DNA from: Candidatus Woesearchaeota archaeon
GTDB taxonomy: Archaea; Nanobdellota; Nanobdellia; Woesearchaeales; ARS49
Direction of reading: 5' to 3'
Length of the DNA stretch: 64,000 nt
Assembly (NCBI GenBank): GCA_016203225.1
Contig: JACQNC010000014.1
Coordinates: 91,715-155,714 of the forward strand
The position numbers and the translations under genes are program-made. Shown in pieces: positions 1,211-55,162 of this stretch. Positions within the stretch are counted from its first letter, which is position 1. Each line of letters starts with the position of its first letter. The notes under the pieces are model-generated. The model did no database searches. It was not told the origin of the DNA and saw nothing but the letters and a program-made list of their open reading frames with translations.

Positions 1211-1747
1211 GTGAGATACCTGGCATTCCTGGCATTGTTTCTCGTCCTGCTCGCAGCCTGCCAGCCAGTCATGCCAGCGACCGAGATGAGGACTACTTCG
1301 CCTGAGCCCATGCCTCCTTCGGTGAGTGCGGAACCTTCCGCGCCAGCGCCCGACGGCGAGCCCGCACTCACTGCCGGGTTCAAGCCCACAGGCAAACTCC
1401 TTGTGGATGCGACGACACAGTACATAGAATACAACCAAGCCGACTTCGATGCGGCACGAGCAGCAGGCAAAATCGTCTATCTCGAGTTCTGGGCAGCATG
1501 GTGTCCGTTCTGCCAGCGCCTGGAACCGTTGATCAGGGAATCCATCGCCAACCTGGACGATCCTGGCGTCGTCGCGTTCCGCGTGAACTACGACAATTCA
1601 GCTGACCTCCAGAAAAAATATAATGTCATCTACCAGCACACGCACATCGTCCTCAAGACAGATGGCAGCGTTTCGTGGAAATCGCTAGACACGAACTGGA
1701 ACGATGAACTCTTCAGATCAGAGATCCAAAAAGCGAAAGGTGGTTAA
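1211..1747 (+). CDS. Thioredoxin-like lipoprotein (extracytoplasmic redoxin)
   Basis: Signal peptide with lipobox (LLAAC). Thioredoxin-fold motif WAAWCPFCQ (CxxC). Confidence 0.7.
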   Translation: MRYLAFLALFLVLLAACQPVMPATEMRTTSPEPMPPSVSAEPSAPAPDGEPALTAGFKPTGKLLVDATTQYIEYNQADFDAARAAGKIVYLEFWAAWCPFCQRLEPLIRESIANLDDPGVVAFRVNYDNSADLQKKYNVIYQHTHIVLKTDGSVSWKSLDTNWNDELFRSEIQKAKGG

Positions 1748-2458
1748 GTGGCAGACCTCACGATCGGCATCGCATTCATCGCAGGCATCATCTCGTTCCT
1801 ATCACCGTGCGTGCTGCCCCTGGTTCCGGCATTCCTGAGCTACTTGGCAGGCACGAGCGCGCAAGATATCAAGGAGGGGAAAGCCGCGCGCATGAAGATA
1901 TTCGTCAATTCACTCCTATTCGTGCTCGGATTCTCGGTGGTGTTCTCCATCCTCGGCGTGCTGCTGAACAGCGTCCTGGCGAACGTCGCGTACGACACGC
2001 GCGTCTGGCTCGGACGGATCGGCGGCGTCATCATCATCCTCTTCGCGCTCTATCTGCTCAAGCTTATCAGGTTGCCATTCCTCGAGCGCGAGCACAAATT
2101 GCAGGTCAGGTGGAAAGCCAGTTATTTCACGTCATTCCTGTTCGGCGCGGCCTTCGCGGCCGGCTGGACACCGTGCGTCGGTGCAGTGCTGGGAAGCGTG
2201 CTGACTTTGGCGATCGCGAACCCGGCCCAGGCGTTCCCGCTGCTGTTCTCATACACCCTAGGATTGGGCTTGCCGTTCCTCGCCGTGGGGATCTTCACGT
2301 CGCAGGCGACCAACCTCATCGGTAAAGCCGGCAAGTGGTTAGTGTACTTCAACTACGTAGTCGGCGTGCTGTTATTGATATTAGGCATACTCGTGTTCAC
2401 GAACAAACTTAGCTTGATCGCGAACTTCGCGTTCCTGAACGAGTTCCTGCTCCGATGA
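1748..2458 (+). CDS. ccdA: Cytochrome c-type biogenesis / disulfide electron transporter CcdA (DsbD core)
   Basis: GTG start directly after the upstream stop. Polytopic membrane protein with two Cys-containing motifs (SPCVLPLVP ... GWTPCVG) typical of the CcdA/DsbD family. Confidence 0.8.
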   Translation: MADLTIGIAFIAGIISFLSPCVLPLVPAFLSYLAGTSAQDIKEGKAARMKIFVNSLLFVLGFSVVFSILGVLLNSVLANVAYDTRVWLGRIGGVIIILFALYLLKLIRLPFLEREHKLQVRWKASYFTSFLFGAAFAAGWTPCVGAVLGSVLTLAIANPAQAFPLLFSYTLGLGLPFLAVGIFTSQATNLIGKAGKWLVYFNYVVGVLLLILGILVFTNKLSLIANFAFLNEFLLR

Positions 2459-3594
2459 AAGGAAGGACTGTCGCGCTGATAATCGTGCTTCTATTGATCG
2501 CCGGCGCCGTCTGGTACATCGAGAGCCAGAAACCCGACATCCCTGAATCCGAGCCTACGATAACGCCGACTCTGCGAGGAGGCGCGCTAGAATCGACCTC
2601 TCCAAAAGTCCAGATGACGCTGGACGAGAAAGCGAAGAAGTATCCTGTCGCGCCTGACTTCATCCCGACCGGCGAATGGATAAATTCGGAGCCGTTGACG
2701 ATCGCGGGATTGCGCGGCAAGGTCGTGCTCGTGGACTTCTGGACGTATTCCTGCATCAACTGCATCAGGACCTTGCCGTATCTGACATCTTGGGACGCGA
2801 AGTACCGCGACGCAGGACTCGTGATAGTCGGCTCGCACACGCCTGAGTTCGAGTTCGAGAAGGACATCGAGAACGTCAAGCGCGCCATGGAGAAGCACGG
2901 CATCGCGTATCCAGTGTTCCAGGACAACGAGTTCCGCACGTGGCGGGCGTATAGGAACCAGTACTGGCCGCACAAGTATCTGGTCGACATCGATGGCTTC
3001 ATCAGGTTCGACCACATCGGCGAAGGCGGCTACGTCGAGACAGAAGAACTCATCCAGGAATTGCTCAAAGAACGGATGCAGCGCATGGGTGAAGTGATGG
3101 ACGTAGAGAAACCCATAACGACGCCTGAAGACGTCCAAGAGGTCGACTTCGGCAAGATCAGGACTCCTGAACTTTATTTCGGGTACGCATTCCGCAGACA
3201 TGCGGGCGGCAACGAGGAAGGCTATCCGCCCGAGAAGACTGTTGAGTACCTCGAGCCAAAGAACCGCGGCGTCAACATCCCATACATGGAAGGGACGTGG
3301 AACAACCAGGAAGATTTCATGCAGCTGGAGATTGGCACGGGCAAGGTTTATCTCACGTACAACGCGAAATCCGTAAACATCGTCGCAAGCAGCGATGCCG
3401 GTTCGACGGTCGAAGTCCTTGTCGATGGCGTGCTGGTGGATGCGAACGCAGGAAGCGACGTCGTCGATGGAAGCGTTTCTGTCGCGGACGAGCGGCTTTA
3501 CAACGTCGTCATGAGCGACGATTACGAACCGCACGAGCTAGAATTGCGGATATCCGGGAAAGGGTTCAGGATCTATACGTTCACGTTCGGATGA
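2455..3594 (+). CDS. Membrane-anchored TlpA/ResA-like thiol:disulfide oxidoreductase with C-terminal extra domain (DipZ C-terminal-like)
   Basis: ATGA overlap with ccdA. N-terminal TM helix, thioredoxin fold with WTYSCINC (CxxC), then an unassigned C-terminal domain of about 150 aa. Confidence 0.7.
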   Translation: MKGRTVALIIVLLLIAGAVWYIESQKPDIPESEPTITPTLRGGALESTSPKVQMTLDEKAKKYPVAPDFIPTGEWINSEPLTIAGLRGKVVLVDFWTYSCINCIRTLPYLTSWDAKYRDAGLVIVGSHTPEFEFEKDIENVKRAMEKHGIAYPVFQDNEFRTWRAYRNQYWPHKYLVDIDGFIRFDHIGEGGYVETEELIQELLKERMQRMGEVMDVEKPITTPEDVQEVDFGKIRTPELYFGYAFRRHAGGNEEGYPPEKTVEYLEPKNRGVNIPYMEGTWNNQEDFMQLEIGTGKVYLTYNAKSVNIVASSDAGSTVEVLVDGVLVDANAGSDVVDGSVSVADERLYNVVMSDDYEPHELELRISGKGFRIYTFTFG

Positions 3595-8654: not shown

Positions 8655-8760
8655 TCGTCCCAAGTATGATGAGTCCCAAGCGCGATCTCCTCCGGCAGGT
8701 TTGAGGAGTTGTAGCTATCGATTCTGTCCCGTTAAAGCGACTACCAACCTGCTTATGGCT
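8655..8760 (+). repeat. Intergenic structured repeat, copy A (composite)
   Basis: CGTCCCAAGTATGATGAG...CCGGCAGGTTTG...TATCGATTC...CGACTACCAACCTGCTTATGG. Confidence 0.6.
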
Positions 8761-12948: not shown

Positions 12949-13032
12949 CGTCCCAGAAATTACTCCCCCGGCAGGTTTGAACGGGCTTTACGGTATCGCT
13001 TCGAAAGCCATAACACCACTAACCTGCTTGGG
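12949..13032 (+). repeat. Intergenic structured repeat, copy B (short form)
   Basis: CCCCCGGCAGGTTTG ... ACACCACTAACCTGCTTGGG. The 5' arm is the reverse complement of the 3' arm. Confidence 0.6.
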
Positions 13033-13067
13033 TACGAGCAACGTAGGCATGCAAAAGTGAAGAACTT

Positions 13068-15680: not shown

Positions 15681-15794
15681 GTTCCCCGCTTTTCTCCCCA
15701 GGCAGATTGGTAGTCGCTTCATTGCTATCGATTCTATGCCAGTAAAGCGTCAAACCTGCTTGGGACGAGCACACTTCAGTTCATCACGCATGGG
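15681..15794 (+). repeat. Intergenic structured repeat, copy C
   Basis: CCGCTTTTCTCCCCAGGCAGATTGG...TATCGATTC...CAAACCTGCTTGGG...TCATCACGCATGGGG. Confidence 0.65.
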
Positions 15795-15848
15795 GCGACA
15801 GAGTCCTGCATCATAACGTTTTTAAAGCATCCGAAGGGAAGCATTGAC

Positions 15849-20048: not shown

Positions 20049-20777
20049 ATGCAGCTCGCGAACGGCGTAGACGCCATCGATCTCGCGATATATCTTCCCG
20101 TCCACGAAACGCTAGTCCTGTCCGACCTCCACATGGGATTCGAGGAATCCCTCAACGCGCAAGGCGTCCTCGTGCCCAGGACACACTACAAGGACCTGGT
20201 CGATCGGCTGGAACTCATCTTCGCGGAACTCAAGAACCGCAGACAGCGCGTCAGCCAGGTGGTGATCACGGGCGACCTGAAGCACGAGTTCGGAGGCATC
20301 CGAAGACAGGAGTGGAAAGACGTCTCGCGCATCGTCGACTACCTTCTGCGGCGCGTAGAGAGGCTCGTCCTCATCAAGGGCAACCACGATGTCCAGCTCG
20401 GACCGATCGCGACGCGCCGCGGATTGGAACTCGTCAAGGACGTCCGGCTCGGTGACGTCCTAATAATCCATGGCGACCAGGAGCCCAATGACCTGAAGGG
20501 AGTGACGACCATCATCATGGGGCACGAACATCCCGCCATCGGGTTGCGTAGCGGAACGCGCGTTGAGCGTTTCAAATGCTACCTTGTCGGGAGATACAAG
20601 CGCAAGACGCTCATCGTGCAACCGTCAGCCAATCTCTTGACAGAAGGCAGCGATGTCATGAAAGAACAGACCTTGAGTCCCTTGCTATCAAAAGATATCC
20701 TATCATTCAAGGCTTTCGTCCTAGATGACAAGAAACGGGAGCTGCTCGACTTCGGCGTGATCAGGCGGTTGCGCTAG
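20049..20777 (+). CDS. Calcineurin-like metallophosphoesterase
   Basis: Motifs LSDLHMG, GDL, GNHD, GHEH. Confidence 0.8.
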   Translation: MQLANGVDAIDLAIYLPVHETLVLSDLHMGFEESLNAQGVLVPRTHYKDLVDRLELIFAELKNRRQRVSQVVITGDLKHEFGGIRRQEWKDVSRIVDYLLRRVERLVLIKGNHDVQLGPIATRRGLELVKDVRLGDVLIIHGDQEPNDLKGVTTIIMGHEHPAIGLRSGTRVERFKCYLVGRYKRKTLIVQPSANLLTEGSDVMKEQTLSPLLSKDILSFKAFVLDDKKRELLDFGVIRRLR

Positions 20778-22137
20778 AAACGACGCGGTTCCTGCCCGAG
20801 TTTTTCGCCTGGTACAGCGCTGTGTCAGCCGAGGAGAAAAGCTGGTTGAACCCATCCGCGTTGTCGGGGAACGCTGCCACGCCTATGCTGACGGTGAGAT
20901 TGGCGCGGCCTGGCTCGCCTTTCCGCAGTTCGCTCATCAAAGTCACGGTCTTGTCCGCAATCAACGTCCTCAGATGCTCAGCGACACCCGCAGCATGAAT
21001 CTTGTCGGTGTTCGGCAGGAACACGACGAACTCCTCGCCGCCCCAGCGTCCGACTATATCCGAGGTGCGTACGTTCTCGTGCATGATCCTCGCGACCAAC
21101 GCCAACGCGCGGTCGCCCGCGTCATGGCCGTAGGTGTCGTTGATGCCCTTGAAATGGTCGATGTCGACCACCAGCAACGCGGCGGGCCAACGGTTGCGCC
21201 GCGCCAGCGACAGTTGGGGTTCTGCCAATTGCAGGAACGTGCGCCTGTTCGGGACTTGCGTGAGGAAGTCGATCCCTCCCGCGGCAGCCTCGGTCTCGAC
21301 GTGCTCTGTCCGGTGCACGGCGAACGTCCCGGCGAGGTTCAACACGCGTTCTGCCTCCGGCCCGAGCGCAACCTTGTGCCTGAGGATTATGCGTTGGAGC
21401 TCCTGGAATTCTGAAGGCTTGGAGAACCCCGCGATCACCTTCAGCAACGCGTCAGCGGTCATCTTGTTGGCCTGCTGAAGATCGAGGATGATCCGCTCGA
21501 CCGTACGCTGTTTGGCCAGCGCGAGGTTCAACGCGTCGAGAGCGTCCTTCTGCTTCCGCAACACGAGCTCAAGTGCGCGTTCGACGGCATCGAGGTCGTC
21601 GGCCCACGCGACGGCCTGGTTCGGGCCCGGCTGCGGCGTCTGCTCGATGCTCCGAAGCGTTGCCTGTTCCTGCTCCAGGAGGCGTTTCTTGTCCGACTGC
21701 CTGGCCCGCCAATCGCCCAATCTCGCGGTGATGAACGCGGAGATGTCCGTGATCTGTTTGCGCTTGGCCGCGAGCGCCAGCCTTTCAGCGAACGCGGCTG
21801 CCATGCCCTTCTGTTCGAGTTCCTGCTGCAGAGCTTCCGTATCCTCGAACTGGATCTTCGACTGCTGCAGGATCTGCTGGCGCACTGACTCGAACTCCTG
21901 ATCGAGCGGTCGCAACGTCACCATGAACGAAGGGAAGATATCAGCCATGATGCGAACGATGACCTGCCGGACGGTCGCGGTGTCGTTCTGGCGCAACGCG
22001 AAAATCAACCCCCTGACAAGCTGCCGGTGCGGCTCAATCGTGCCTAGCTCTGCCTCGAGGCTGTGCAATTGCAGCTGTTCGTCAGAAGTGAGGCTGGCGA
22101 GAAGCTGGATGATCCGTCGCGCGTCCTCCTCTTTCAC
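20761..22137 (-). CDS. GGDEF-domain diguanylate cyclase with N-terminal coiled-coil domain
   Basis: Complete GGDEF domain: RRTF, DIDHFKGINDTYGH, GGEEF active-site variant, SIGVA, ADTALYQAK. TATA about 25 nt upstream. Confidence 0.85.
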   Translation of the reverse strand: MKEEDARRIIQLLASLTSDEQLQLHSLEAELGTIEPHRQLVRGLIFALRQNDTATVRQVIVRIMADIFPSFMVTLRPLDQEFESVRQQILQQSKIQFEDTEALQQELEQKGMAAAFAERLALAAKRKQITDISAFITARLGDWRARQSDKKRLLEQEQATLRSIEQTPQPGPNQAVAWADDLDAVERALELVLRKQKDALDALNLALAKQRTVERIILDLQQANKMTADALLKVIAGFSKPSEFQELQRIILRHKVALGPEAERVLNLAGTFAVHRTEHVETEAAAGGIDFLTQVPNRRTFLQLAEPQLSLARRNRWPAALLVVDIDHFKGINDTYGHDAGDRALALVARIMHENVRTSDIVGRWGGEEFVVFLPNTDKIHAAGVAEHLRTLIADKTVTLMSELRKGEPGRANLTVSIGVAAFPDNADGFNQLFSSADTALYQAKNSGRNRVVSSATA

Positions 22138-23300: not shown

Positions 23301-23450
23301 CGTTCCTCGTCCCTCCGCTTTTCTCCCCCGGCAGTTTTGAGGTCGCGTTACATGCAGAACGCAGCGTTCTGCTGTACAGCCGAGACCTTCGGGCTCGGCA
23401 TGTATCGGTATTGATTCAATAGCAAGTATACCACTACAAACCTGCATGGG
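23301..23450 (+). repeat. Intergenic structured repeat, copy D (with nested hairpin insertions)
   Basis: CCGCTTTTCTCCCCCGGCAGTTTTG...hairpins CAGAACGC/GCGTTCTG and GCCGAG/CTCGGC...TATCGGTATTGATTCAATAG...ACCACTACAAACCTGCATGGG. Confidence 0.65.
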
Positions 23451-23530
23451 CATGGCTGCTTTGGAAGTTTGGGCGGCGTATCTCTGTTTCATGCAGAAGT
23501 TTTTTAAACGGCTTCTTTGCCTTTCAGGGT

Positions 23531-28992: not shown

Positions 28993-29598
28993 GTGTTCGT
29001 CGACGTGCAGAACCTCTACTACTCCGCGAAATTCACGCACAGCGCGCTCCCGAACTTCAGGCCGATACTCGATGATGTAGTCCGCGGCCGTACGCTCGTC
29101 AGGGCGATCGCGTATGTCATCCGCGCCGAGGAAGTCAACCGAGAGGAATTCTTCAACGTCCTATCGAACATGGGTTTCGAGATCCGCGCCAAGGACGTCC
29201 AAGTCTTCGCCGATGGCGCCAAGAAGGGCGACTGGGACATCGGAATCGCGATGGACGCCATCGAGCTCGCGCCCAGGCTAGACACGATAATAATCGTGTC
29301 AGGCGACGGCGACTTCGTGCCGTTGGTTGAACACCTGCGTAGAGCGCTCGGCTGCCGAGTCGAAGCGGCCGCGTACGGCAAGAACACGTCGCAGAAACTG
29401 ATCGAAGCGGTCGACCTGTTCACCGATCTCGACAAGAACCCGAAATACCTGCGCGGCCATAGACCGCACGAGGAACGTCACGGCGAGATAGACACGCACG
29501 CGGTCAAGGCAGTGACTGAGCTACGGACAGAGATAACCAGTGCACCATCTCAACGGCCGAGACAGCAGATGCGCAGGCGCAGACCACAACGGAAGTGA
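28993..29598 (+). CDS. NYN/LabA-like PIN-domain protein
   Basis: VFVDVQN ... IIIVSGDGDFVPLV. GTG start. Confidence 0.7.
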   Translation: MFVDVQNLYYSAKFTHSALPNFRPILDDVVRGRTLVRAIAYVIRAEEVNREEFFNVLSNMGFEIRAKDVQVFADGAKKGDWDIGIAMDAIELAPRLDTIIIVSGDGDFVPLVEHLRRALGCRVEAAAYGKNTSQKLIEAVDLFTDLDKNPKYLRGHRPHEERHGEIDTHAVKAVTELRTEITSAPSQRPRQQMRRRRPQRK

Positions 29599-29602
29599 GA
29601 CC

Positions 29603-29926
29603 ATGTTGAGCATCACATCGCAGAATTTCCGGTCTGAAGTCTTGGGCAGCAAGCTGCCGGTCATAGTCGATTTCTGGGCAGAATGGTGCGGCCCCTGCCG
29701 CATGCTCGGCCCGGTGTTCGAGAAAGTCTCGAAGGACTTCGCAGGCAAGATGACGTTCGCGAAGCTGAACGTCGACACGTCGCCCGAGCTCGCGCAGAAG
29801 TACGACGTGCGCGGCATCCCGTGCATGATCATATTCAAGAACGGCAAGGAAGCAGATAGATTGGTAGGTGCGCTTTCTGAGAGTATCTTGCGCGAGAAGA
29901 TCACGTCTGCGTTGAGAAGCCCTTGA
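29603..29926 (+). CDS. trxA: Thioredoxin
   Basis: WAEWCGPCR. RBS GGAAGTGAG. ATG at 29603. Confidence 0.85.
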   Translation: MLSITSQNFRSEVLGSKLPVIVDFWAEWCGPCRMLGPVFEKVSKDFAGKMTFAKLNVDTSPELAQKYDVRGIPCMIIFKNGKEADRLVGALSESILREKITSALRSP

Positions 29927-32185: not shown

Positions 32186-32290
32186 TCGTCCCAGGCGTGA
32201 TGAGTTTCGCCACGATTGACCTCGCGTTACCGCTATCGATTCTATTCCAATAACGCGACTACAAACCTGCTTGGGCACTTAGCCTGGGGG
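32186..32290 (+). repeat. Intergenic structured repeat, copy E (long form)
   Basis: CGTCCCAGGCGTGATGAGTTTCGCCACGATTGAC...TATCGATTCTATTCCAATAACGCGACTACAAACCTGCTTGGG...AGCCTGGGGG. Confidence 0.7.
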
Positions 32291-32309
32291 AGAAAGCCTG
32301 AGAAAGTCC

Positions 32310-32921
32310 TTACGGGACTTCGACGAATATCTTGTAGATCTTCTTCGTGTACCAGACGCTCAAGTCAGAGTTCGCATCGCACGTGCCGGGTGGCGTCGCG
32401 CCGTATTGAGAGACGTCCCACACGCACACGTTGAACGAGTACGTGCCTTGCGGCGTGGGGGCGTTATCGGCGATGCTGTCGCCCACCACGACCCGGATGG
32501 GAATCGCTTGGTAGTCATTGTTCTTTATCGCGTGCGGGCCAGGCGAGTAAAGCACCCAGTTGTTCGTGATGTAGACCGGAGAGGTCTCCATTATCTCGGT
32601 CTCCTGTGCGTCGAACCCTTTGCTGAACTCCACGCTCACTCCGAACTCTGAATTCCGGCCGAGCACGTTCTGCACGCCAAGCCAGAACGTCGCGCCCTTG
32701 CCGCGCGAAAGACGCGCCTTGTTCAACGGGATCGCTACGATGTTGCCGTCGCGGATGAGAGACACGAGCTGAGCCTCCGTGTCGCGGTCGAGCTCCTGCC
32801 TGAACTCCTCGGTCGTCGTGTAGAACTGGCGCAGGAACCACAACGATCCCGCGAAGATGATGACTGTCAGTATCAGGATGACGAAGAAACCGATGCTCAG
32901 CTCGAAACCTCTTTTGTCCAT
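32310..32921 (-). CDS. Pilin-like protein with class-III-type signal peptide
   Basis: MDKRG|FELSIGFFVILIL: a charged N-region, then a hydrophobic stretch with Glu near its start. Confidence 0.45.
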   Translation of the reverse strand: MDKRGFELSIGFFVILILTVIIFAGSLWFLRQFYTTTEEFRQELDRDTEAQLVSLIRDGNIVAIPLNKARLSRGKGATFWLGVQNVLGRNSEFGVSVEFSKGFDAQETEIMETSPVYITNNWVLYSPGPHAIKNNDYQAIPIRVVVGDSIADNAPTPQGTYSFNVCVWDVSQYGATPPGTCDANSDLSVWYTKKIYKIFVEVP

Positions 32922-32954
32922 GCGTCAAACATCCGTTGTAGGCCTTACATTTCT

Positions 32955-33042
32955 GCCCAAGCACGATTGACGTCGCGTTATCGGCGTCGAATCGACTGCA
33001 ATGAGGCAACTACAAACCTGCCTGGGCACGAGCAGCTTGGGA
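32955..33042 (+). repeat. Intergenic structured repeat, copy F
   Basis: CTGCCCAAGCACGATTGACGTCGCGTTATCGGCGTCGAATCG...CAACTACAAACCTGCCTGGG...GCAGCTTGGG. Confidence 0.65.
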
Positions 33043-33052
33043 AGCAACGATT

Positions 33053-34441
33053 TCAAATGCTTCCCGGGGTTATGAACGTGATCTTCTCCAACGATTTCGT
33101 GAACGTGCCCTTCTTGACCTGGGCGTTCTGTTCGTACGAGTATGCGACGCTCAACGTCACCGTGTGCTGCGCCTCGGGACGCGCGACGAACGTGATGGGG
33201 ACGTCTGCAGTGACGGTCTGGCCAACGGCGTTCAATTCCTGGTTGACGACGACGAACCCCAGCTCCTTGCTGCCGTCGAGGGCGCGCACGGTCTCGATCC
33301 TGACCTTGCTGATGCCTGCCTGGACCTCGTATAGTGTGAATTCGGCGCGCAAGCGCTCCGTGACTGTGTTGAACGGCTTGTTGTACGTGTACCGATTGTT
33401 CAGGTGGAAGATGTTGAGGTTGCGGTCGTCGAACAGCGACACGGGCGTGACCTGGATTCCTGATCGCACCTGCGCGACGCACGCCTGAGACTGGCAGCCC
33501 AGGTCCATGTACTGGCCGGCGCTCCCCGAACAGGGCCCGCAGTCTGCTGCGCAGGTGCACTTGTTCTCGTTTCCGTCGCACTGGAAGTTGCCGCACGCGC
33601 CCGCGATAGGGGTGTGCTCGCAGAAGAACTGCGTCTCCGGCCCGCACGTGTCCTCGGTGCCTGCGTTGCCGTCGTCGCAGTCAGGACAGCCGTAATCGAC
33701 GTTAGGCTTGACCCACAAGAACGTCGTGCCGCGGTACGGGCTCAGGAGTTGGCCTGTCTTGCGCTGCGAAGATATAGTGTATTCGTAGTCGATCTTGAGC
33801 TGAGGATCGGTCACAGATCCCTCGAGGTCAGCCGTGACCAAATCGAGATGCAGGTCGTCGCTCACGGCGGCGCCCTTGCCAGAGAACGGCTTGTTCGCGT
33901 CACTGTCGATCAGGATGACGTTCTGCTTGTTTTTGAGCGCAGAGAGCTCGTAGCCGATGATGCGCACGTCGCTCGCGCCGGTCGCGATGGTGTCGAGCGT
34001 AGTCCGGACAGTGAACGGGTCGCGCTTGAAGTTGAACGGCTGGTTGTAAGTGACAGTGACCTTGAACTGGTTGCCCAGGCTGTTTATCGGGTTGGTGACG
34101 CTCACTGGCTTCACGTTCGCCTGAGGCACGGCGATGCTGCACACCGTGTCATCATTGATGCAGGTCTTCTGCAGAAGCGTGCTGCCCGGAACCGCGCCCG
34201 CGCACGTGCCGCAATCGGCTGCGCAGATGCACTCGTTCTCTGTGGTTTCACACTGGCCGTTCCCGCACGCGCCAGGGATCGGCGTGCGGACGCACTTGTT
34301 GTCGACACAACTGCTCGTGTATCCCTGCTTGTCGCAATCAGCTGCCTTTGCGCACTCCTTCTTTGCGCAGCCGGCGAGTATTATGGCGAAAGCAAGAAGA
34401 CCTACGAACAGTACGACCTTCACACCCTTTTTCATGGTCAT
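33053..34441 (-). CDS. Secreted Cys-rich lipoprotein with internal tandem duplication
   Basis: Lipobox LAGC. Two copies of the module CGNxQC...ENxCxCAADCGxC, each followed by a beta-rich domain. Confidence 0.55.
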   Translation of the reverse strand: MTMKKGVKVVLFVGLLAFAIILAGCAKKECAKAADCDKQGYTSSCVDNKCVRTPIPGACGNGQCETTENECICAADCGTCAGAVPGSTLLQKTCINDDTVCSIAVPQANVKPVSVTNPINSLGNQFKVTVTYNQPFNFKRDPFTVRTTLDTIATGASDVRIIGYELSALKNKQNVILIDSDANKPFSGKGAAVSDDLHLDLVTADLEGSVTDPQLKIDYEYTISSQRKTGQLLSPYRGTTFLWVKPNVDYGCPDCDDGNAGTEDTCGPETQFFCEHTPIAGACGNFQCDGNENKCTCAADCGPCSGSAGQYMDLGCQSQACVAQVRSGIQVTPVSLFDDRNLNIFHLNNRYTYNKPFNTVTERLRAEFTLYEVQAGISKVRIETVRALDGSKELGFVVVNQELNAVGQTVTADVPITFVARPEAQHTVTLSVAYSYEQNAQVKKGTFTKSLEKITFITPGSI

Positions 34442-34471
34442 GCGTTAACAGAGGATGCTATAAAAACTTGC

Positions 34472-34586
34472 TGTTCCGTTGCAGTCCCCGCGTTTCTTCC
34501 CAGGCACGATTGACGTGGCATCATCGGTATCGATTCAATAGTCATAACACCACTACCAACCTGCGTGGGAATCATCACGCCTGGGA
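34472..34586 (+). repeat. Intergenic structured repeat, copy G
   Basis: CCCAGGCACGATTGACG...TATCGATTCAATAGTCATAACACCACTACCAACCTGCGTGGG...TCATCACGCCTGGG. Confidence 0.7.
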
Positions 34587-34602
34587 CAGCAATGTTTTGG
34601 TC

Positions 34603-34929
34603 TCAGTTGAACTTCCCTTCCTTGCTCAATCCTGAGATGGCTGCCTGGAGCTTCTCGGCGTACTTCATCAGGTCCTTCTCCATCTCGTCGACCATCTTGC
34701 CGCACAACGGGTGGTTGGCGTCGGCGGCGTCCTTCTTGTAGTACTGCTTGATGCGCCAGATGATGCTCTTGACGTCAGCGAGAAGGCGGGTCTTGTTATA
34801 ATTACAGTTCTGCATCGCGGTCACCTCTTTCAGGAGGGTTTTAGGAAACGCGCTTATTAAGGTTTCGCGAATTTGGGCGCAGTAGAGAGTCTCGCGCTCA
34901 CATGCTTGCCCCATTATGATCTGCCGCAA
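34603..34929 (-). CDS. Hypothetical protein
   Basis: 108-aa ORF upstream of the lipoprotein gene. Confidence 0.3.
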   Translation of the reverse strand: MRQIIMGQACERETLYCAQIRETLISAFPKTLLKEVTAMQNCNYNKTRLLADVKSIIWRIKQYYKKDAADANHPLCGKMVDEMEKDLMKYAEKLQAAISGLSKEGKFN

Positions 34930-35788
34930 GCATCACGGAAAAGCTTTTATCTTTCCTCAACCAAATCCGCTGAAAAAAGGTGATGTGGTGCGACTCAGAC
35001 AGCTATTCCTGGCAGTGACGCTCGCGTTCCTGCTCGCGCCTCTCGCGCTCGCCCACGAAGGCGAGAGCGAAGCAGCAGAGCTCTTCGAGAACGCGATGGT
35101 CTGGCTGAACTTCGCGGCGGCCGTCGCGTGCGTGATAGTCGCGTTCGCGACAATGAACCGCGCAGGCAGCATCCTTGGTCGTGCATACGTCTTCATCACG
35201 GCGAGCATACTATTCTTCACCGGCATCCGCCTATTCTTTTTCCTAACTGAAAGCACATCAGTTATCGCCGTCACCGAGGCCACGCGCGCGGTCTGGTGGC
35301 ATATCATGTTCTACACCGCGACCGGATTGTTCCTTGCCGCGCTCAACGCGCTACGCACATTCAGGAAAGTGGAACGCACGGACATGACTACGCTCGCGAC
35401 CTTCTTCGCACTCGGCGGCTGGCTCGTACTCCTGTTCGCCCTCGCCATGCCGCTTGACTCTTGGACCGCGGGCTGGTTCGAGGCCACTCTCTGGGACAGG
35501 AGCGGGATCATCCACTTCATCGCGTTCGCGTTCATCGCGTACACCTGGTGGATGCTACTAAGCCTGCGCAAGACCTTCGGAAAGGTCGTCACCGCGGCAT
35601 CGGCGTCATTCCTGGTCTCGCTGGCGTTCTTCGGGTTCGTGCACCTCTGGGAACTGCTGGGCGAGAGCTGGAACGTACTCCCGTTTTCGAGTGAAGTCAT
35701 CGAACTCGTCGAAGGCCCGTTATTCCTTGTCGCGCTAATCGCATTCCTTGCAGCACTCTGGAGGATCAGGTCAGCCCTGCCTAAATGA
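34916..35788 (+). CDS. Polytopic membrane protein (start uncertain; GTG at 34985 or 34988 would give a cleaner signal peptide)
   Basis: Multiple TM helices. 4-nt overlap with the next gene. Confidence 0.5.
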   Translation: MICRKHHGKAFIFPQPNPLKKGDVVRLRQLFLAVTLAFLLAPLALAHEGESEAAELFENAMVWLNFAAAVACVIVAFATMNRAGSILGRAYVFITASILFFTGIRLFFFLTESTSVIAVTEATRAVWWHIMFYTATGLFLAALNALRTFRKVERTDMTTLATFFALGGWLVLLFALAMPLDSWTAGWFEATLWDRSGIIHFIAFAFIAYTWWMLLSLRKTFGKVVTAASASFLVSLAFFGFVHLWELLGESWNVLPFSSEVIELVEGPLFLVALIAFLAALWRIRSALPK

Positions 35789-36300
35789 CCATGGAACAGC
35801 TATTCGACGATTCCAACGTGACATTGGTGCTCATGAAGGAGCGCGATCTCGCAGGCCAGACGAAGCAGGTCGTCAGCCAGTTCAGCGGCACAAAACGCAT
35901 CTGCGTGTTCGCCATCGCCAAACCGGCGGCAGCTCTCGCGCGCGAACTGAAAAGCGCGGGCATCAAGGACGAACAGCTCTATTTCGTCGACGCAGTGAGC
36001 AAGTGTGCGGGGGTCAAGCCGTGCAGCAGGATAGACGCTATCGAGGACCTCACAGACATGAGCATAGCATACACCGAAGCCTTGCGCAAAGGCTGCGATG
36101 CGGGATTGCTCGCGGCGCTGGCCGTGCTCTTCTCCTATGTCGATGAGGAGACGTTGATCAAGTTCATCGCCGCGCTATCGCAGAAGACCAGGGCCCAAAA
36201 TACGCGCTTGGCTATACTCACGCTCTGGGACGAGAAAACGCATCCAGTTCTGCGCGAGGCCTTCCCATTCATGGACAAGATCCTGGACCTTCGCGCGTAA
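35785..36300 (+). CDS. Hypothetical protein
   Basis: ATGA overlap with the upstream membrane-protein gene. Confidence 0.4.
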   Translation: MTMEQLFDDSNVTLVLMKERDLAGQTKQVVSQFSGTKRICVFAIAKPAAALARELKSAGIKDEQLYFVDAVSKCAGVKPCSRIDAIEDLTDMSIAYTEALRKGCDAGLLAALAVLFSYVDEETLIKFIAALSQKTRAQNTRLAILTLWDEKTHPVLREAFPFMDKILDLRA

Positions 36301-36365
36301 TCTTTATAAACCGATACCCTTTTAAGCAAGTCCAGCTACCCGCATTTCAGAAAGAGGTGACCCGC

Positions 36366-36992
36366 ATGAATAAGAAGGCAGCGCTCGAGCTGTCCATCAA
36401 CGCGATCGTCGTTCTCATCCTAGCAATCACAATCCTCGGCTTGGGAATCGGCTTCATCAGGGGCCAGTTCGGCGGCCTGAGCGAGCAGTTCACACAGGTC
36501 AGGGCCGAGATCAAGGACCAGCTCATCACCAAGATCCGCGAATCGGGCGACCTGCTCGTGTTCAACCGCGCCGAGCTCGAGGTGGCGACGGGCAAGAAGG
36601 ACACGTTCTACATCGGGGTCAAGAACACGGAAAGCAACCCTGACGGAGACACCGTCTGTTACCAGATAGGCGTCAAGTGCATCCGCTCACTGAAATCGGA
36701 CAACTCCTGCACGCCGGACATCCAAGGCGACGCGGGCAACAACATCGTCGTCGGCGGAAAGGTCGACGGCCAAGGCGCGGACCAGGTAACGTGGTTCCAG
36801 GTGTTCGACACCGTCGACATCAAGAATCTCGACGTCGGCGTCTATCCAGTCACGGTGCAGATCGCGAAGGGCAAGCCAGACACGTACGCGATGGAGATCA
36901 TCGTGGCGAAAGACAGCCAGAACGGCGACTGCAGCCGTGGCGGCGTGTTCACACGCTACCAGAGCAAACAGTTCTTCGTAGTGCTCTCCTGA
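36366..36992 (+). CDS. Pilin-like protein with class-III-type signal peptide
   Basis: MNKKAALELSINAIVVLILAI, the same ELSI motif as the gene at 32310-32921. RBS AAGAGGTGA. TATA 36303-36310. Confidence 0.45.
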   Translation: MNKKAALELSINAIVVLILAITILGLGIGFIRGQFGGLSEQFTQVRAEIKDQLITKIRESGDLLVFNRAELEVATGKKDTFYIGVKNTESNPDGDTVCYQIGVKCIRSLKSDNSCTPDIQGDAGNNIVVGGKVDGQGADQVTWFQVFDTVDIKNLDVGVYPVTVQIAKGKPDTYAMEIIVAKDSQNGDCSRGGVFTRYQSKQFFVVLS

Positions 36993-37000
36993 GGAAAAAC

Positions 37001-37228
37001 ATGGCACACCACAAGATGAAGCGGCGATTGTCGTCCAGCGAGGAGTTCGAGGTCATGAAGCTCGTGCTGGACAAATTCCTCTGGCTCGGAACTGCCTTCC
37101 TCGCGTGGGGACTCTACACGGTGCTGACCGCGGATTTCGCGTCCGGCATGTACCGTATCCTCATCGGAGCCTTGCTGTTCATAGTCTTCGCGGGCATCAT
37201 CGTCCGCGAATTCGAGATGATAAGGTAA
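37001..37228 (+). CDS. Small membrane protein (75 aa)
   Basis: RBS GAGGAAAAAC. Two TM helices. Confidence 0.4.
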   Translation: MAHHKMKRRLSSSEEFEVMKLVLDKFLWLGTAFLAWGLYTVLTADFASGMYRILIGALLFIVFAGIIVREFEMIR

Positions 37229-37248
37229 AGGGTTCTTCATTTCTTTGC

Positions 37249-37388
37249 TTTCCCGTTGCAGGCCTGCTCGCGCCCCAGCGTGATGAGTTTTGCCACGATT
37301 GACGTCGTTTTATCGGTGTCGAATCAATAGCGATAACACCACTACAAACCTGCAGGGGTAGCTGTGCTTTAGCTCATCACGCTTGGGA
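37249..37388 (+). repeat. Intergenic structured repeat, copy H (long form)
   Basis: CCCCAGCGTGATGAGTTTTGCCACGATTGACGTCG...GTCGAATCAATAGCGATAACACCACTACAAACCTGCAGGGG...CTCATCACGCTTGGG. Confidence 0.7.
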
Positions 37389-37441
37389 ACGTGGGTGCAA
37401 GGAGCATAACGCATTTATAGCACTGATTCAGGCTCACAATT

Positions 37442-50096: not shown

Positions 50097-50210
50097 ACGT
50101 TCGTTGCTCCCCCGGCATGATTGACGTCGCTTCAAAAGCATCACATCGATAACGATGAAGCAACCACAAACCTGCCTGGGGAGATTACGCTTGGAACGCA
50201 CCTGGGAGGG
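50097..50210 (+). repeat. Intergenic structured repeat, copy I
   Basis: CTCCCCCGGCATGATTGACGTCGC...ACATCGATAACGATGAAGCAACCACAAACCTGCCTGGGG...ACGCTTGG...CCTGGGAGGG. Confidence 0.65.
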
Positions 50211-53242: not shown

Positions 53243-55162
53243 ATGAACGTAGGACAAACAGGTCAAACGCTGGACGCGATCATCAAGGACGAGCCACAGC
53301 TCGTGCTAAAGAACAACATAGCGCGCGCGTGGAAGCACGCGATCGCGAAGGGCGGTTTCGGCACGCTGCTGCTCGCGAGGTTCGACAACGTCTTCGCATT
53401 CGGCGCAGAATTGATCAATCAGGGAGAGGCAGACCCGGCGATCCTTGGGCTTGAAGGGATCCCGTATTCTCCCCGTCCCGAGAACGGTCAAGGCTGGCTT
53501 CCGACGCCCATAGAGGATCCTCAAGTAAGAAAACGCGTCATAAAGGCAGGCCAAGACAGCTGGACAGCATACCAGAACGCACGCGCCCAGAAGGCGCCAG
53601 ACCAGGGACCGACCATCGACCGCGGCGACGTCATAATGCAGTACTGTGACTTTCTCAGACAGATGGATATCGAGCTAACGCAAAGCCCGCTCCTCGCGGT
53701 AAAAGTGCTCATCCCTCCAACCGGCAAGAACGCGGATGAAGAGCGCGTCTTCAGGAGCGAGGTCGAGCGCAAGTTCATCGACGAGTACTTCATGCTCCGC
53801 AGGCTGAAACACCCGAACATCGTCAGAACGCATGGACTCATCGAGGACCCGAAGTACGGCTGGACGCTTTACATGGACTACATAGACGGCCTGACCCTGG
53901 AGGACTATATCATTTCCCAAGAAGACAAGCGTCTACCTGCGCCTGTCGCGTTGAAGATCGTCGAGCGCGTCGCGGACGCGGTGAAGTACTGCCACGCGAA
54001 CGGCATCATCCATCGCGACATCAAACCGGCGAACGTCCTCATCAAGATCGACGGGGTCGAGGCAGATGGCACGCCCAAACTCATCCCGTACCTGTGCGAT
54101 TTCGGCATCAGCAAGAACGTCGACAGCTCGCAGACGACAATCATCAATCTTGGAAGCCCGCATCACGTGTCTCCCGAACAGGCGTGCGGCAACCCGGTGA
54201 CGTTCGCGTCCGACGTCTACCAGCTCGGTTCGCTGCTTTTCGAGATGGTCACGGGCAAAGGCGCATACGAAGGGCTCAGTATCGACGCCACGCTCACCCT
54301 TCTGCGCAACCCGACGATCGATCATCCCACTGTGGTGAGGGATTACCTTCCGAACCTCTCCGAACGCGTCAAGGACCTAATCGAGGTCGCCAGACGCAAG
54401 GATCCCGAGAAGCGTTGGATAATGGACAAGTTCATCTCCGAAGCGCGCTACATCATCGAGAAGGGACTCTATGACGAAACGCCACGCCGAAGCCCCACGC
54501 GGACAGAGCTAATCGAACTCTGGAAAGTCGTCGACCTCCGAAGGGCCGAACTCGAGACAAAGATCCAATTCATCCGTTTCGAGGAGGACATCGATAAGGC
54601 CAAGGAACTGTACAAGGCGGGCGATTTCATAGAATTCGAGATGAAAGTCACATCGTTCGCGGCGCAGCTCGCTGAGCGCCCCCAACGGTACACCAAGTTG
54701 AAGGAGGAGCTCACGCGCCTCCTGCTCGAAGTCGCAGACAACAGATTGAAGGCGAAGGAATACACCCAGGTCGGCACCGCGCTCACATACGTAACGAAAT
54801 GCATCGACGGACTCAAGAACGTCGATACCAAGGTCTACGGGGAGGAGTGCCAGAAACTCTCGGTGCAATTCGGGCCGCACTCGCTGTTCGTCAGCAACTT
54901 CAGCAATGTCGCCGATTCCCTGAAGAGCGTAGAGAAAGGCATCAAGGATGTCTACACTCTCCGAACCATGAACAAACCCTTCAGCGACAAGCTCAGCTCG
55001 CTCGAACTCCAACTGACAGGCGTGCGCGGCGTCTGGACGAACACGCCGCGTGAGAGCATCGGTTCCGCCTATGAGCGCATGGGACAACAGATCACCGACA
55101 TCGAGGACGCGTTGACAGATCTCAAACGCGAGACGCGCATCGACCGGTCATCAGGACAATAA
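53243..55162 (+). CDS. Hanks-type Ser/Thr protein kinase with N- and C-terminal extra domains
   Basis: HRDIKPANVL, DFGISK, SPE motif. C-terminal coiled-coil region. Confidence 0.85.
   Translation: MNVGQTGQTLDAIIKDEPQLVLKNNIARAWKHAIAKGGFGTLLLARFDNVFAFGAELINQGEADPAILGLEGIPYSPRPENGQGWLPTPIEDPQVRKRVIKAGQDSWTAYQNARAQKAPDQGPTIDRGDVIMQYCDFLRQMDIELTQSPLLAVKVLIPPTGKNADEERVFRSEVERKFIDEYFMLRRLKHPNIVRTHGLIEDPKYGWTLYMDYIDGLTLEDYIISQEDKRLPAPVALKIVERVADAVKYCHANGIIHRDIKPANVLIKIDGVEADGTPKLIPYLCDFGISKNVDSSQTTIINLGSPHHVSPEQACGNPVTFASDVYQLGSLLFEMVTGKGAYEGLSIDATLTLLRNPTIDHPTVVRDYLPNLSERVKDLIEVARRKDPEKRWIMDKFISEARYIIEKGLYDETPRRSPTRTELIELWKVVDLRRAELETKIQFIRFEEDIDKAKELYKAGDFIEFEMKVTSFAAQLAERPQRYTKLKEELTRLLLEVADNRLKAKEYTQVGTALTYVTKCIDGLKNVDTKVYGEECQKLSVQFGPHSLFVSNFSNVADSLKSVEKGIKDVYTLRTMNKPFSDKLSSLELQLTGVRGVWTNTPRESIGSAYERMGQQITDIEDALTDLKRETRIDRSSGQ

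Follow-up and report, generated by a model that had tools for sequence, protein, structure and literature searches.

A rearranged, repeat-invaded copy of a conserved and unannotated envelope operon in a Woesearchaeota-type DPANN archaeon

The locus at positions 32,186 to 37,388 of a 64-kb stretch of DNA (hereafter, the window) from a Candidatus Woesearchaeota metagenome-assembled genome (MAG) is a rearranged, repeat-invaded copy of a conserved, unannotated four-gene envelope operon of Woesearchaeota-type DPANN archaea. The operon encodes two pilin-like paralogues, here called pilin1 and pilin2, a small protein with two transmembrane (TM) helices, and a Cys-rich lipoprotein. Both the operon and its protein family are unannotated, while the components are of known kinds, namely a prepilin-like N-terminus, an immunoglobulin (Ig)-like ectodomain, a lipobox lipoprotein, and palindromic repeats. 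Neither the operon nor the protein family turned up in literature searches.

A conserved operon convergent with tpiA

The comparative set consists of the neighbourhoods of seven distinct relatives, fetched via homologues of pilin1 and of the lipoprotein. The four-gene operon is present in every relative examined, so the locus, described as novel in an original prediction made from the sequence alone, is new in being unannotated but not in its gene content. The common order, on one strand, is a pilin2-like gene, a gene for a 73-amino-acid (aa) two-TM protein, the lipoprotein gene, and a pilin1-like gene, with the operon convergent with tpiA, which encodes triosephosphate isomerase. This order holds in the loci whose contigs reach far enough (L002, L006, L008, L009, L010, L012, and L013), across which family identity falls to ~25%; L004 shows pilin1 and tpiA only, at the end of its contig. 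The 73-aa gene is absent from L010, and a gene for a 66-aa YgaP-like TM protein sometimes precedes the lipoprotein gene. Among the relatives, the lipoproteins are 271–466 aa long and the intergenic spacers measure 0–60 nucleotides (nt). Each paralogue is single-copy in every locus examined, and genes for ZIP, thioredoxin, NYN, thioredoxin reductase, and PolB proteins are recurrent neighbours. The operon is apparently vertically inherited, rather than a variable accessory pilin cluster.

In the window, the locus contains the following genes.

32310-32921, minus strand: pilin1, 203 aa, starting MDKRGFELSIGFFVILIL; leader MDKRG, conserved hydrophobic helix, and Ig-like beta-sandwich
33053-34441, minus strand: Cys-rich lipoprotein, 462 aa; lipobox LAGC; two tandem modules, each a 12-Cys region plus a beta-sandwich
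34603-34914/34929, minus strand: orf103, a small helical protein, called at NCBI in a 70-aa version; G+C content at third codon positions (GC3) 0.78
34985-35788, plus strand: polytopic membrane protein, ~266 aa (start revised); accessory to the operon, which it adjoins
35785-36300, plus strand: 171-aa cytoplasmic protein; ATGA overlap with the membrane protein gene
36366-36992, plus strand: pilin2, 208 aa, starting MNKKAALELSINAIVVLIL; paralogue of pilin1
37001-37228, plus strand: 75-aa protein with two hydrophobic helices; core operon member; GC3 0.83

The proteins of the locus (HY493_05405-05435) are every one a "hypothetical protein" at NCBI, and searches of all seven against Pfam, NCBIfam, and PADLOC gave nothing significant. 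All of the open reading frames (ORFs) described in the original prediction were found in the sequence, and GC3 across the locus ORFs, including the two small proteins it listed, is 0.77–0.86, which is coding-type; an overlapping antisense ORF has a GC3 of 0.55.

Inversion of a segment bounded by repeats

In L006, an epimerase gene (minus strand) is followed by genes for the membrane protein, a 163-aa protein, pilin2, the 73-aa protein, the lipoprotein, and pilin1, all on the plus strand, and then by tpiA (minus strand). The window differs from this co-directional arrangement in one respect: a ~2.7-kb segment comprising orf103 and the genes for the membrane protein, the 171-aa protein, pilin2, and the small TM protein is inverted in place. 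L001, a separate Logan assembly, is 100% identical to the window along 16.8 kb including the locus, and the gene order is therefore not a mis-join in the MAG. Four copies of a palindromic repeat, E to H, lie in the locus, scored here in bits with a covariance model.

32190-32275, 79.2 bits on the minus strand: repeat E, between the convergent tpiA and pilin1 genes; includes the left half of an outer palindrome, CCCAGGCGTGATGAG
32941-33026, 95.1 bits: repeat F, between the lipoprotein and pilin1 genes
34484-34569, 87.8 bits: repeat G, the left inversion boundary, with the right half of the outer palindrome, ATCATCACGCCTGGG, after it
37273-37358, or to 37397 with both halves of the outer palindrome: repeat H, the right inversion boundary; folds at -54.6 kcal/mol (z=-3.0) on the minus strand

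The inverted segment is bounded by repeats G and H, and repeat F separates the lipoprotein and pilin1 genes, which in the relatives are spaced by 1 nt or overlap. Based on the comparison with relatives, a rearrangement at the repeats, which the original prediction had raised as a possibility, is supported; how the repeats would have caused the inversion is what we infer. The repeats had also been said to sit at every intergenic junction of the locus. They occupy only four of the eight, with none between orf103 and the membrane protein gene, between the latter and the gene for the 171-aa protein, between that gene and pilin2, or between pilin2 and the gene for the small TM protein.

The repeat family

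Searches with nhmmer and the covariance model identified nine sites in the window, all outside ORFs with coding-type GC3 and starting at 8687, 12963, 15695, 23320-23452, 32202, 32953, 34496, 37285, and 50107. The window contains 10 occurrences of a 12-nt core motif, with 0.61 expected. The copies outside the locus are as follows.

8687-8759: weak copy (covariance model E=0.24; nhmmer E=1.5e-7)
12963-13034: copy with E=5e-7
15695-15767: copy with E=1.9e-10; the only one scoring best on the plus strand
23320-23452: copy split by a ~55-nt insert
50107-50182: full copy, 86.6 bits

The repeat is an imperfect palindrome of ~75–125 nt, every copy of which also matches the nhmmer model on the opposite strand. 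Some copies are nested in a second palindrome, CCCAGGCGTGATGAG...CTCATCACGCCTGGG, which contains a C-box-like GTGATGA. Because this second palindrome flanks the core variably among the copies, the repeat family is nested or composite. The second palindrome was seen on one side of a copy (left or right) or on both (37273-37397, 32190-32204, 34570-34584, 8659-8675, and 15776-15796). The insert in the copy at 23320-23452 (23357-23402) carries two perfect small hairpins, GCAGAACGCAGCGTTCTGC and GCCGAGACCTTCGGGCTCGGC.

Predicted folds are more stable on the minus strand, at -35 to -55 kcal/mol versus -22 to -50 kcal/mol on the plus strand (for example, -39.2 versus -33.6 and -38.8 versus -22.4 kcal/mol), with modest folding z-scores of -1 to -3.4. 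In a structure registered by hand, 80.7% of cells are paired versus 29–48% with a slid partner, and there are six pairs with double changes, in an alignment of only five sequences. RNAalifold recovered next to no consensus structure from a MAFFT alignment of the repeats, as that alignment takes no account of structure. In Rfam 15 the repeats have no match at the gathering threshold, and the window yields three tRNAs only.

The minus strand gives the best score for eight of the nine copies irrespective of the direction of the flanking genes, and insertion of the copies could be strand-specific relative to replication, by analogy with elements of the IS200/IS605 type. Cumulative GC skew falls nearly monotonically across the window. 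No transposase, RAYT and TnpA included, was found among the window ORFs scanned with Pfam (20 ORFs in total, a subset of those in the window), and target-site duplications are not definable from the sequence. Neither the covariance model nor nhmmer finds a copy in ~126 kb of the relatives' loci. A likeness between the tpiA-pilin1 spacer of L002 and repeat E was confirmed by neither search. A 17-nt repeat pattern compared with genome contigs gave, among the matches listed, single chance matches in unrelated bacteria, and a two-anchor pattern compared with a metagenome collection gave two matches, neither of them significant with the repeat model; one of the metagenome matches, L118, lies inside a long ORF on a contig unlike this locus. 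The simplest reading is that the repeats are a REP/MITE-like element (repetitive extragenic palindromic sequence or miniature inverted-repeat transposable element) that has expanded in this genome and that is seen only here among the sequences examined.

The repeats could instead be cis-regulatory RNA elements (terminators, processing sites, or stabilisers) selected for this locus, which would agree with the RNA-level regulation proposed in the original prediction. Copies lie just 3' of the orf103, lipoprotein, pilin1, and small TM genes; three of these flanked genes are on the minus strand, the strand with the more stable folds; and the stems show compensatory changes. This explanation is weakened by the five further copies at unrelated intergenic sites in the same 64 kb, by the minus-strand orientation of repeat H and of the copy at 50107, whose flanking genes are on the plus strand, and by the absence of the element from all orthologous operons, whose genes abut. 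Given also the lack of an Rfam match and the modest z-scores, we consider selection for a regulatory role at this locus highly improbable, while individual hairpins may affect transcript ends.

A family of proteins with a prepilin-like N-terminus

The two ELSI-motif proteins that the original prediction took to be paralogues are paralogous, with a BLASTP E value of 2e-11 and 34% identity across the N-terminal 85 aa. Pilin2 begins MNKKA/ALELSIN (the slash separates positions -1 and +1), and a GAGGTGA ribosome-binding site lies 5 nt upstream of its start. A profile of pilin1 homologues plus pilin2, run against 1.84 billion cluster representatives, recovered a family of 2136 representatives (50% identity clusters) at E<=1e-3, 942 of them at E<=1e-10, nearly all 175–235 aa in length. 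Aligned, 93 diverse members have the N-terminal consensus M-N-K-[KR]-[GA]-[IFLM]-[EQ]-L-[SA]-[IV]-[NSTG]-F-[IL]-V-x-[LI]-I.

At position -1, 56 of the 93 members have G, 36 have A, and one has S (G in pilin1, A in pilin2); position -2 is K or R in 86, including both pilin1 and pilin2; and position +2 is E or Q in 92. The leader is mostly 4–5 aa long, with five residues in 49 members. Among the 83 members that pass a relaxed rule, 70 have a leader of 4–7 residues, and the 24-residue segment behind it contains no more than one charged residue. Column entropy is 1.4–1.6 bits over the first 30 positions and 2.3–2.8 bits elsewhere, making the N-terminus the most conserved part of the family. Archaeal class III signal peptides have G, A, or S at -1, a charged residue at -2, and the processing site ahead of the hydrophobic H-domain (PMC4371748). 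The family follows these general class III (prepilin) rules at -1, at -2, and in its short leader before the hydrophobic domain. The class III signal peptides assigned to the two proteins in the original prediction accordingly hold as a general design kept family-wide, but the two proteins match no pilin hidden Markov models (HMMs), and only pilin2 matches the dedicated motif (see below).

Homologues of pilin1 and of the lipoprotein (P0009 and P0168; VLJ21_04240/04245) occur on an 11-kb contig deposited as 'Candidatus Binatia bacterium', which probably comes from a DPANN archaeon and was binned into a bacterial MAG by mistake.

Predicted fold of the pilin-like proteins

The AlphaFold2 model of pilin1, computed from a 93-sequence alignment, has a predicted local distance difference test (pLDDT) score of 94.3 and comprises a helix at residues 4–42, a second at 46–57, and then a beta-sandwich. 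Searched against the PDB with Foldseek, it matches PapD-like, MSP, WxLIP, and other Ig-like domains (best E=1.3e-6; template modelling (TM) scores 0.4–0.54), and a PDB profile search with the family gives WxLIP and Ig-like matches at E of about 0.01. Based on this model and these matches, pilin1 and pilin2 are predicted to be extracytoplasmic proteins made of a helix and an Ig-like domain and starting like a prepilin, which does not establish them as members of the pilin class.

A profile of a pilin2 orthologue (A10) matched influenza HA2 in the PDB over positions 30–120 (E=0.003–0.005, ~20 bits). The corresponding part of influenza HA2 is largely helical. We judge the match spurious, as the AlphaFold2 model of pilin1 is a beta-sandwich from about residue 60 and the predicted secondary structures disagree; the match leans on a short shared motif, C-x-x-I-x-x-K-C (C-[FY]-x-I-x-x-K-C).

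The lipoprotein and the smaller neighbours

The signal peptide of the 462-aa lipoprotein, MTMKKGVKVVLFVGLLAFAIILAGC, ends in the lipobox LAGC. L22 and C25 of the lipobox, the latter being the predicted lipidation site, are at least 90% conserved in 51 homologues. In all, 64 homologues were found, every one unnamed; the 51 that were aligned are 28–66% identical, with the lipobox and the Cys columns conserved. The protein had been predicted to consist of two repeats, and its two halves align as homologues (E=1e-21, 30% identity across 194 aa), in agreement with a 98-nt repeat in the DNA; each half carries 12 cysteines and then a beta-sandwich. The AlphaFold2 model (pLDDT 93.2) has two beta-sandwich lobes, for which Foldseek returns two-lobed sandwiches of the Vps26/arrestin type. 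With TM scores of 0.2–0.3, this likeness is one of fold class only and is not taken as an indication of function. A match of the lipoprotein to a well-characterised intracellular family, which the original prediction had named as counting against it, was looked for, and no such family matches.

At window positions 1211-3594 and 29540-29926 (both plus strand), we noted a gene cluster for a lipobox protein, a membrane protein of CcdA-like appearance (judged by eye), and a thioredoxin-like/AhpC protein (Thioredoxin_10, E=2.3e-27), and a thioredoxin gene is kept near the operon in most loci. The presence of thioredoxin-type genes fits extracytoplasmic disulfide handling for a lipoprotein with 24 cysteines. 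In a distant relative, a gene for a bacterial-type prolipoprotein diacylglyceryl transferase (LGT, PF01790) adjoins tpiA and the operon (L010 11223-11978; L011 8012-8767), which hints at lipidation of the lipobox protein by an Lgt-type enzyme in some members of the group.

The 75-aa protein is 50–79% identical to its counterparts in five other loci. The polytopic membrane protein is translationally coupled to the 171-aa protein, as originally described: the stop of its gene overlaps the ATG of the 171-aa ORF (ATGA, 35785-35788). Its start is probably a GTG at 34985/34988 rather than 34916, giving 266–267 aa, which fits both the orthologue and the 266-aa NCBI call. The membrane protein is 45% identical to L006:1937-2725 and the 171-aa protein 38% identical to L006:2727-3218. 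Among the relatives, only the closest, L006 and L007, have orthologues of the two, located immediately 5' of pilin2 and in the same direction, and the pair is an accessory, lineage-restricted neighbouring module. Genes for proteins of 258 aa and 168 aa in L008 were rejected as orthologues of the pair, with 25% and 15% identity and a different architecture. The 171-aa protein scores 16.2 bits (E=0.015) against DUF7504 (PF24336), below the Pfam gathering threshold of 27 bits, and its PDB matches to designed armadillo repeats were discarded as compositional only, with no qualifying stretches. We found no counterpart of orf103 in the relatives' loci and no family match for it; its gene sits within the inverted segment beside repeat G.

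What the operon may encode

We favour, at a rough probability of 0.55, a conserved envelope complex formed by two prepilin-like proteins, the two-TM protein, and the lipid-anchored Cys-rich lipoprotein. The core would comprise a pilin2-like protein (~208 aa), a two-TM protein of 73–75 aa, a lipoprotein of one or two modules, and a pilin1-like protein (~203 aa). The paralogues would be made with very short basic leaders (MNKK-G/A) and inserted into the membrane via Sec, and a prepilin-type (A24) peptidase encoded elsewhere would probably cut after the G or A, leaving a conserved hydrophobic helix that begins [IFLM]-E-L-S. What assembles may be a heteromeric surface complex anchored in the membrane or a short stalk resembling a pseudopilus, either of which would be likelier than a long pilus with its own motor. 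Such a pilin-like envelope complex is plausible, with its processing unproven, while an extended appendage is unsupported.

A number of results weigh against this explanation. HMM libraries include curated N-terminal models, such as Class_IIIsignal, Pilin_N, N_methyl, and Arch_flagellin in Pfam and the archaeal pilin/flagellin N-terminal models in NCBIfam. Pilin, archaellin, and class III models of Pfam and NCBIfam gave no match to the full pilin1 and pilin2 proteins or to the 93 members, and isolated N-terminal fragments (29–46 aa, E up to 10) searched against the HMM libraries matched no pilin model. The FlaFind 1.2 motif, [KRDE][GA][ALIFQMVED][ILMVTAS] as quoted in PMC4307647, is matched by pilin2 (K-A/A-L) and by 8 of the 93 members, and it fails in pilin1 (R-G/F-E) and in 85 of the 93, because of the E or Q at +2. 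The conservation of G or A at -1 is that of one homologous family and thus counts, in evolutionary terms, once and not 93 times. No pilin is among the top 50 Foldseek matches in the PDB, and the sole filament-subunit match by sequence in the PDB profile search, to 8fk7 ("Flagellin"), is non-significant (E=0.32). T2SSE, T2SSF, and Peptidase_A24 are absent from within ~10 kb of the locus in this genome's neighbourhood, from the loci of all seven distinct relatives, and from the 20 window ORFs scanned with Pfam. As to the rearrangement, repeats G and H share the same nominal orientation, which alone does not predict inversion by homologous recombination.

Many of these results would speak instead for the ELSI proteins being uncleaved type II signal anchors, whose helix would be conserved through packing on the two-TM protein within a heteromeric envelope complex, with no link to a prepilin peptidase or to type IV systems, a possibility that we take seriously while holding it to be less probable. 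It suits the lack of pilin HMM and FlaFind matches, the lack of linked pilus machinery in any neighbourhood examined, and the generic Ig-like fold matches; the confinement of the family to this operon, in single copies among housekeeping neighbours, suits a structural membrane complex; and the co-conserved two-TM partner has charges at the membrane boundary (D24, K25, and REFE). Against a signal anchor, G, A, or S at -1 in 93/93, K or R at -2 in 86/93, and a leader of 4–5 residues are exactly the features required of a prepilin peptidase substrate. Like type IV pilins, the proteins are conserved most strongly at the N-terminus, and their hydrophobic segment opens with polar residues (E, S, and N), which mature pilins show there too. 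The original prediction went further and saw a putative cell-surface appendage, with its machinery elsewhere or the system unusual. In a true extended type IV pilus-like structure, the two paralogues would be the major and minor pilins and the lipoprotein a tip or adhesin, and an ATPase, a platform protein, and a peptidase encoded elsewhere in the genome would carry out the assembly. The class III-like N-termini, the predicted helix plus beta-sandwich, and the occurrence of two paralogues in one operon would all agree with such a pilus, and linkage to the machinery is not obligatory, pilin genes lying away from pilB/pilC having a precedent in pilA1-6 of H. volcanii (PMC4371748). We nevertheless regard such a pilus as unlikely. 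The statement in the original prediction that the window contains no assembly ATPase, platform protein, or prepilin peptidase is borne out, with no Walker A motif (G..G.GK[ST]) anywhere in the 64 kb and no Pfam match among the ORFs scanned, but no link to a secretion ATPase or TadC appears in any neighbourhood down to ~25% family identity either; there is no significant structure or sequence match to solved pilins or archaellins; and lipid-anchored and two-TM partners suggest a membrane-proximal complex, not a fibre.

A bolder form of the envelope-complex explanation, which we consider doubtful, is that proteins with the pattern [KR]-[GA]/[IFLM]-E-L-S are a new class of prepilin-like proteins missed by present predictors and HMM libraries, which together with the lipoprotein and the two-TM protein would build a surface structure found at every sampling of this lineage, with no need of a dedicated ATPase or platform. 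This structure could be a short pseudopilus or a stator-like stalk displaying a disulfide-knotted adhesin, as the host-contact apparatus of presumed episymbionts. In such a class, the Glu at +2 would take the subunit-registering role of the Glu at +5 of bacterial pilins.

Other features of the window and of a related locus

Positions 20761-22137 (minus strand) encode a 458-aa protein with a strong match to the GGDEF diguanylate cyclase domain (E=1.2e-45), and in L006 a gene with a guanylate-cyclase domain lies beside the operon region. Few archaea are known to use cyclic di-GMP signalling. Positions 53243-55162 (plus strand) encode a 639-aa protein whose kinase domain is of the eukaryotic Ser/Thr type (Pkinase, E=4e-38).

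Significance

DPANN archaea such as Woesearchaeota are abundant, mostly uncultivated, and thought to be cell-attached, and their envelope and attachment machinery is almost undescribed. The operon is a concrete and testable candidate for a core surface complex, being present in all loci examined, with a family of more than 2000 50%-identity clusters that is predicted with high confidence to be extracytoplasmic. The results also suggest that surveys of pilins that rely on FlaFind or Pfam count too few such proteins in this lineage. The repeats illustrate how a REP/MITE-like palindromic element, multiplying within a small DPANN genome, can reshape a conserved operon.

Comparison with known systems

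The repeats resemble bacterial REP sequences and bacterial interspersed mosaic elements (BIMEs), as well as MITEs, in being short, imperfect, intergenic palindromes, at nine per 64 kb, with nested arrangements. As in those elements, most copies share one chromosomal orientation (8/9 on the minus strand) and they are associated with a rearrangement breakpoint. They differ in the lack of a RAYT or TnpA gene among the scanned window ORFs, in their DPANN host, and in that the element was not found outside this genome.

The pilin-like proteins share a short basic leader, a charged residue at -2, and G, A, or S at -1 with archaeal class III proteins (PilA1-6, AapA/B, UpsA/B, and EpdA-E, FlaFind-positive substrates of PibD/FlaK/EppA). 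As in archaeal type IV pilins, the processing-site position precedes a hydrophobic domain of ~22–25 residues, conservation peaks at the N-terminus, the model predicts a long N-terminal helix joined to an Ig-like beta-sandwich, paralogues are paired within an operon, and the genes can sit apart from pilB/pilC. Unlike archaeal pilins, which have [ILMVTAS] at +2, the family has a near-invariant E or Q there, and it also differs from EppA substrates, which carry Q at +1 and E at +5. Further differences from archaeal pilins are the lack of a Pfam or NCBIfam pilin match, the single copies in a housekeeping neighbourhood, and a position that is never beside an ATPase or TadC gene in the loci examined.

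ArlF and ArlG (FlaF/FlaG) are adjacent paralogues of ~150–200 aa with an N-terminal helix and a beta-sandwich ectodomain, and they form a membrane-to-envelope anchor. The likeness of pilin1 and pilin2 to this pair is one of architecture only. The operon differs in having no archaellin-family sequence match and no arl genes nearby, and in its partners, the lipoprotein and the two-TM protein.

The Bas loci of Sulfolobus, which specify the bindosome, have a dedicated ATPase, BasE, and a membrane protein, BasF. Unlike Bas, whose cargo is sugar-binding proteins, the present operon lacks ATPase and platform genes as well as a substrate-binding domain, and its partner protein is a Cys-rich lipoprotein. 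The likeness lies in prepilin-type N-termini placed on an envelope complex instead of a long filament (PMC3047682). No sequence relationship between the two was looked for or found, and the bindosome is our favoured functional analogy for this operon.

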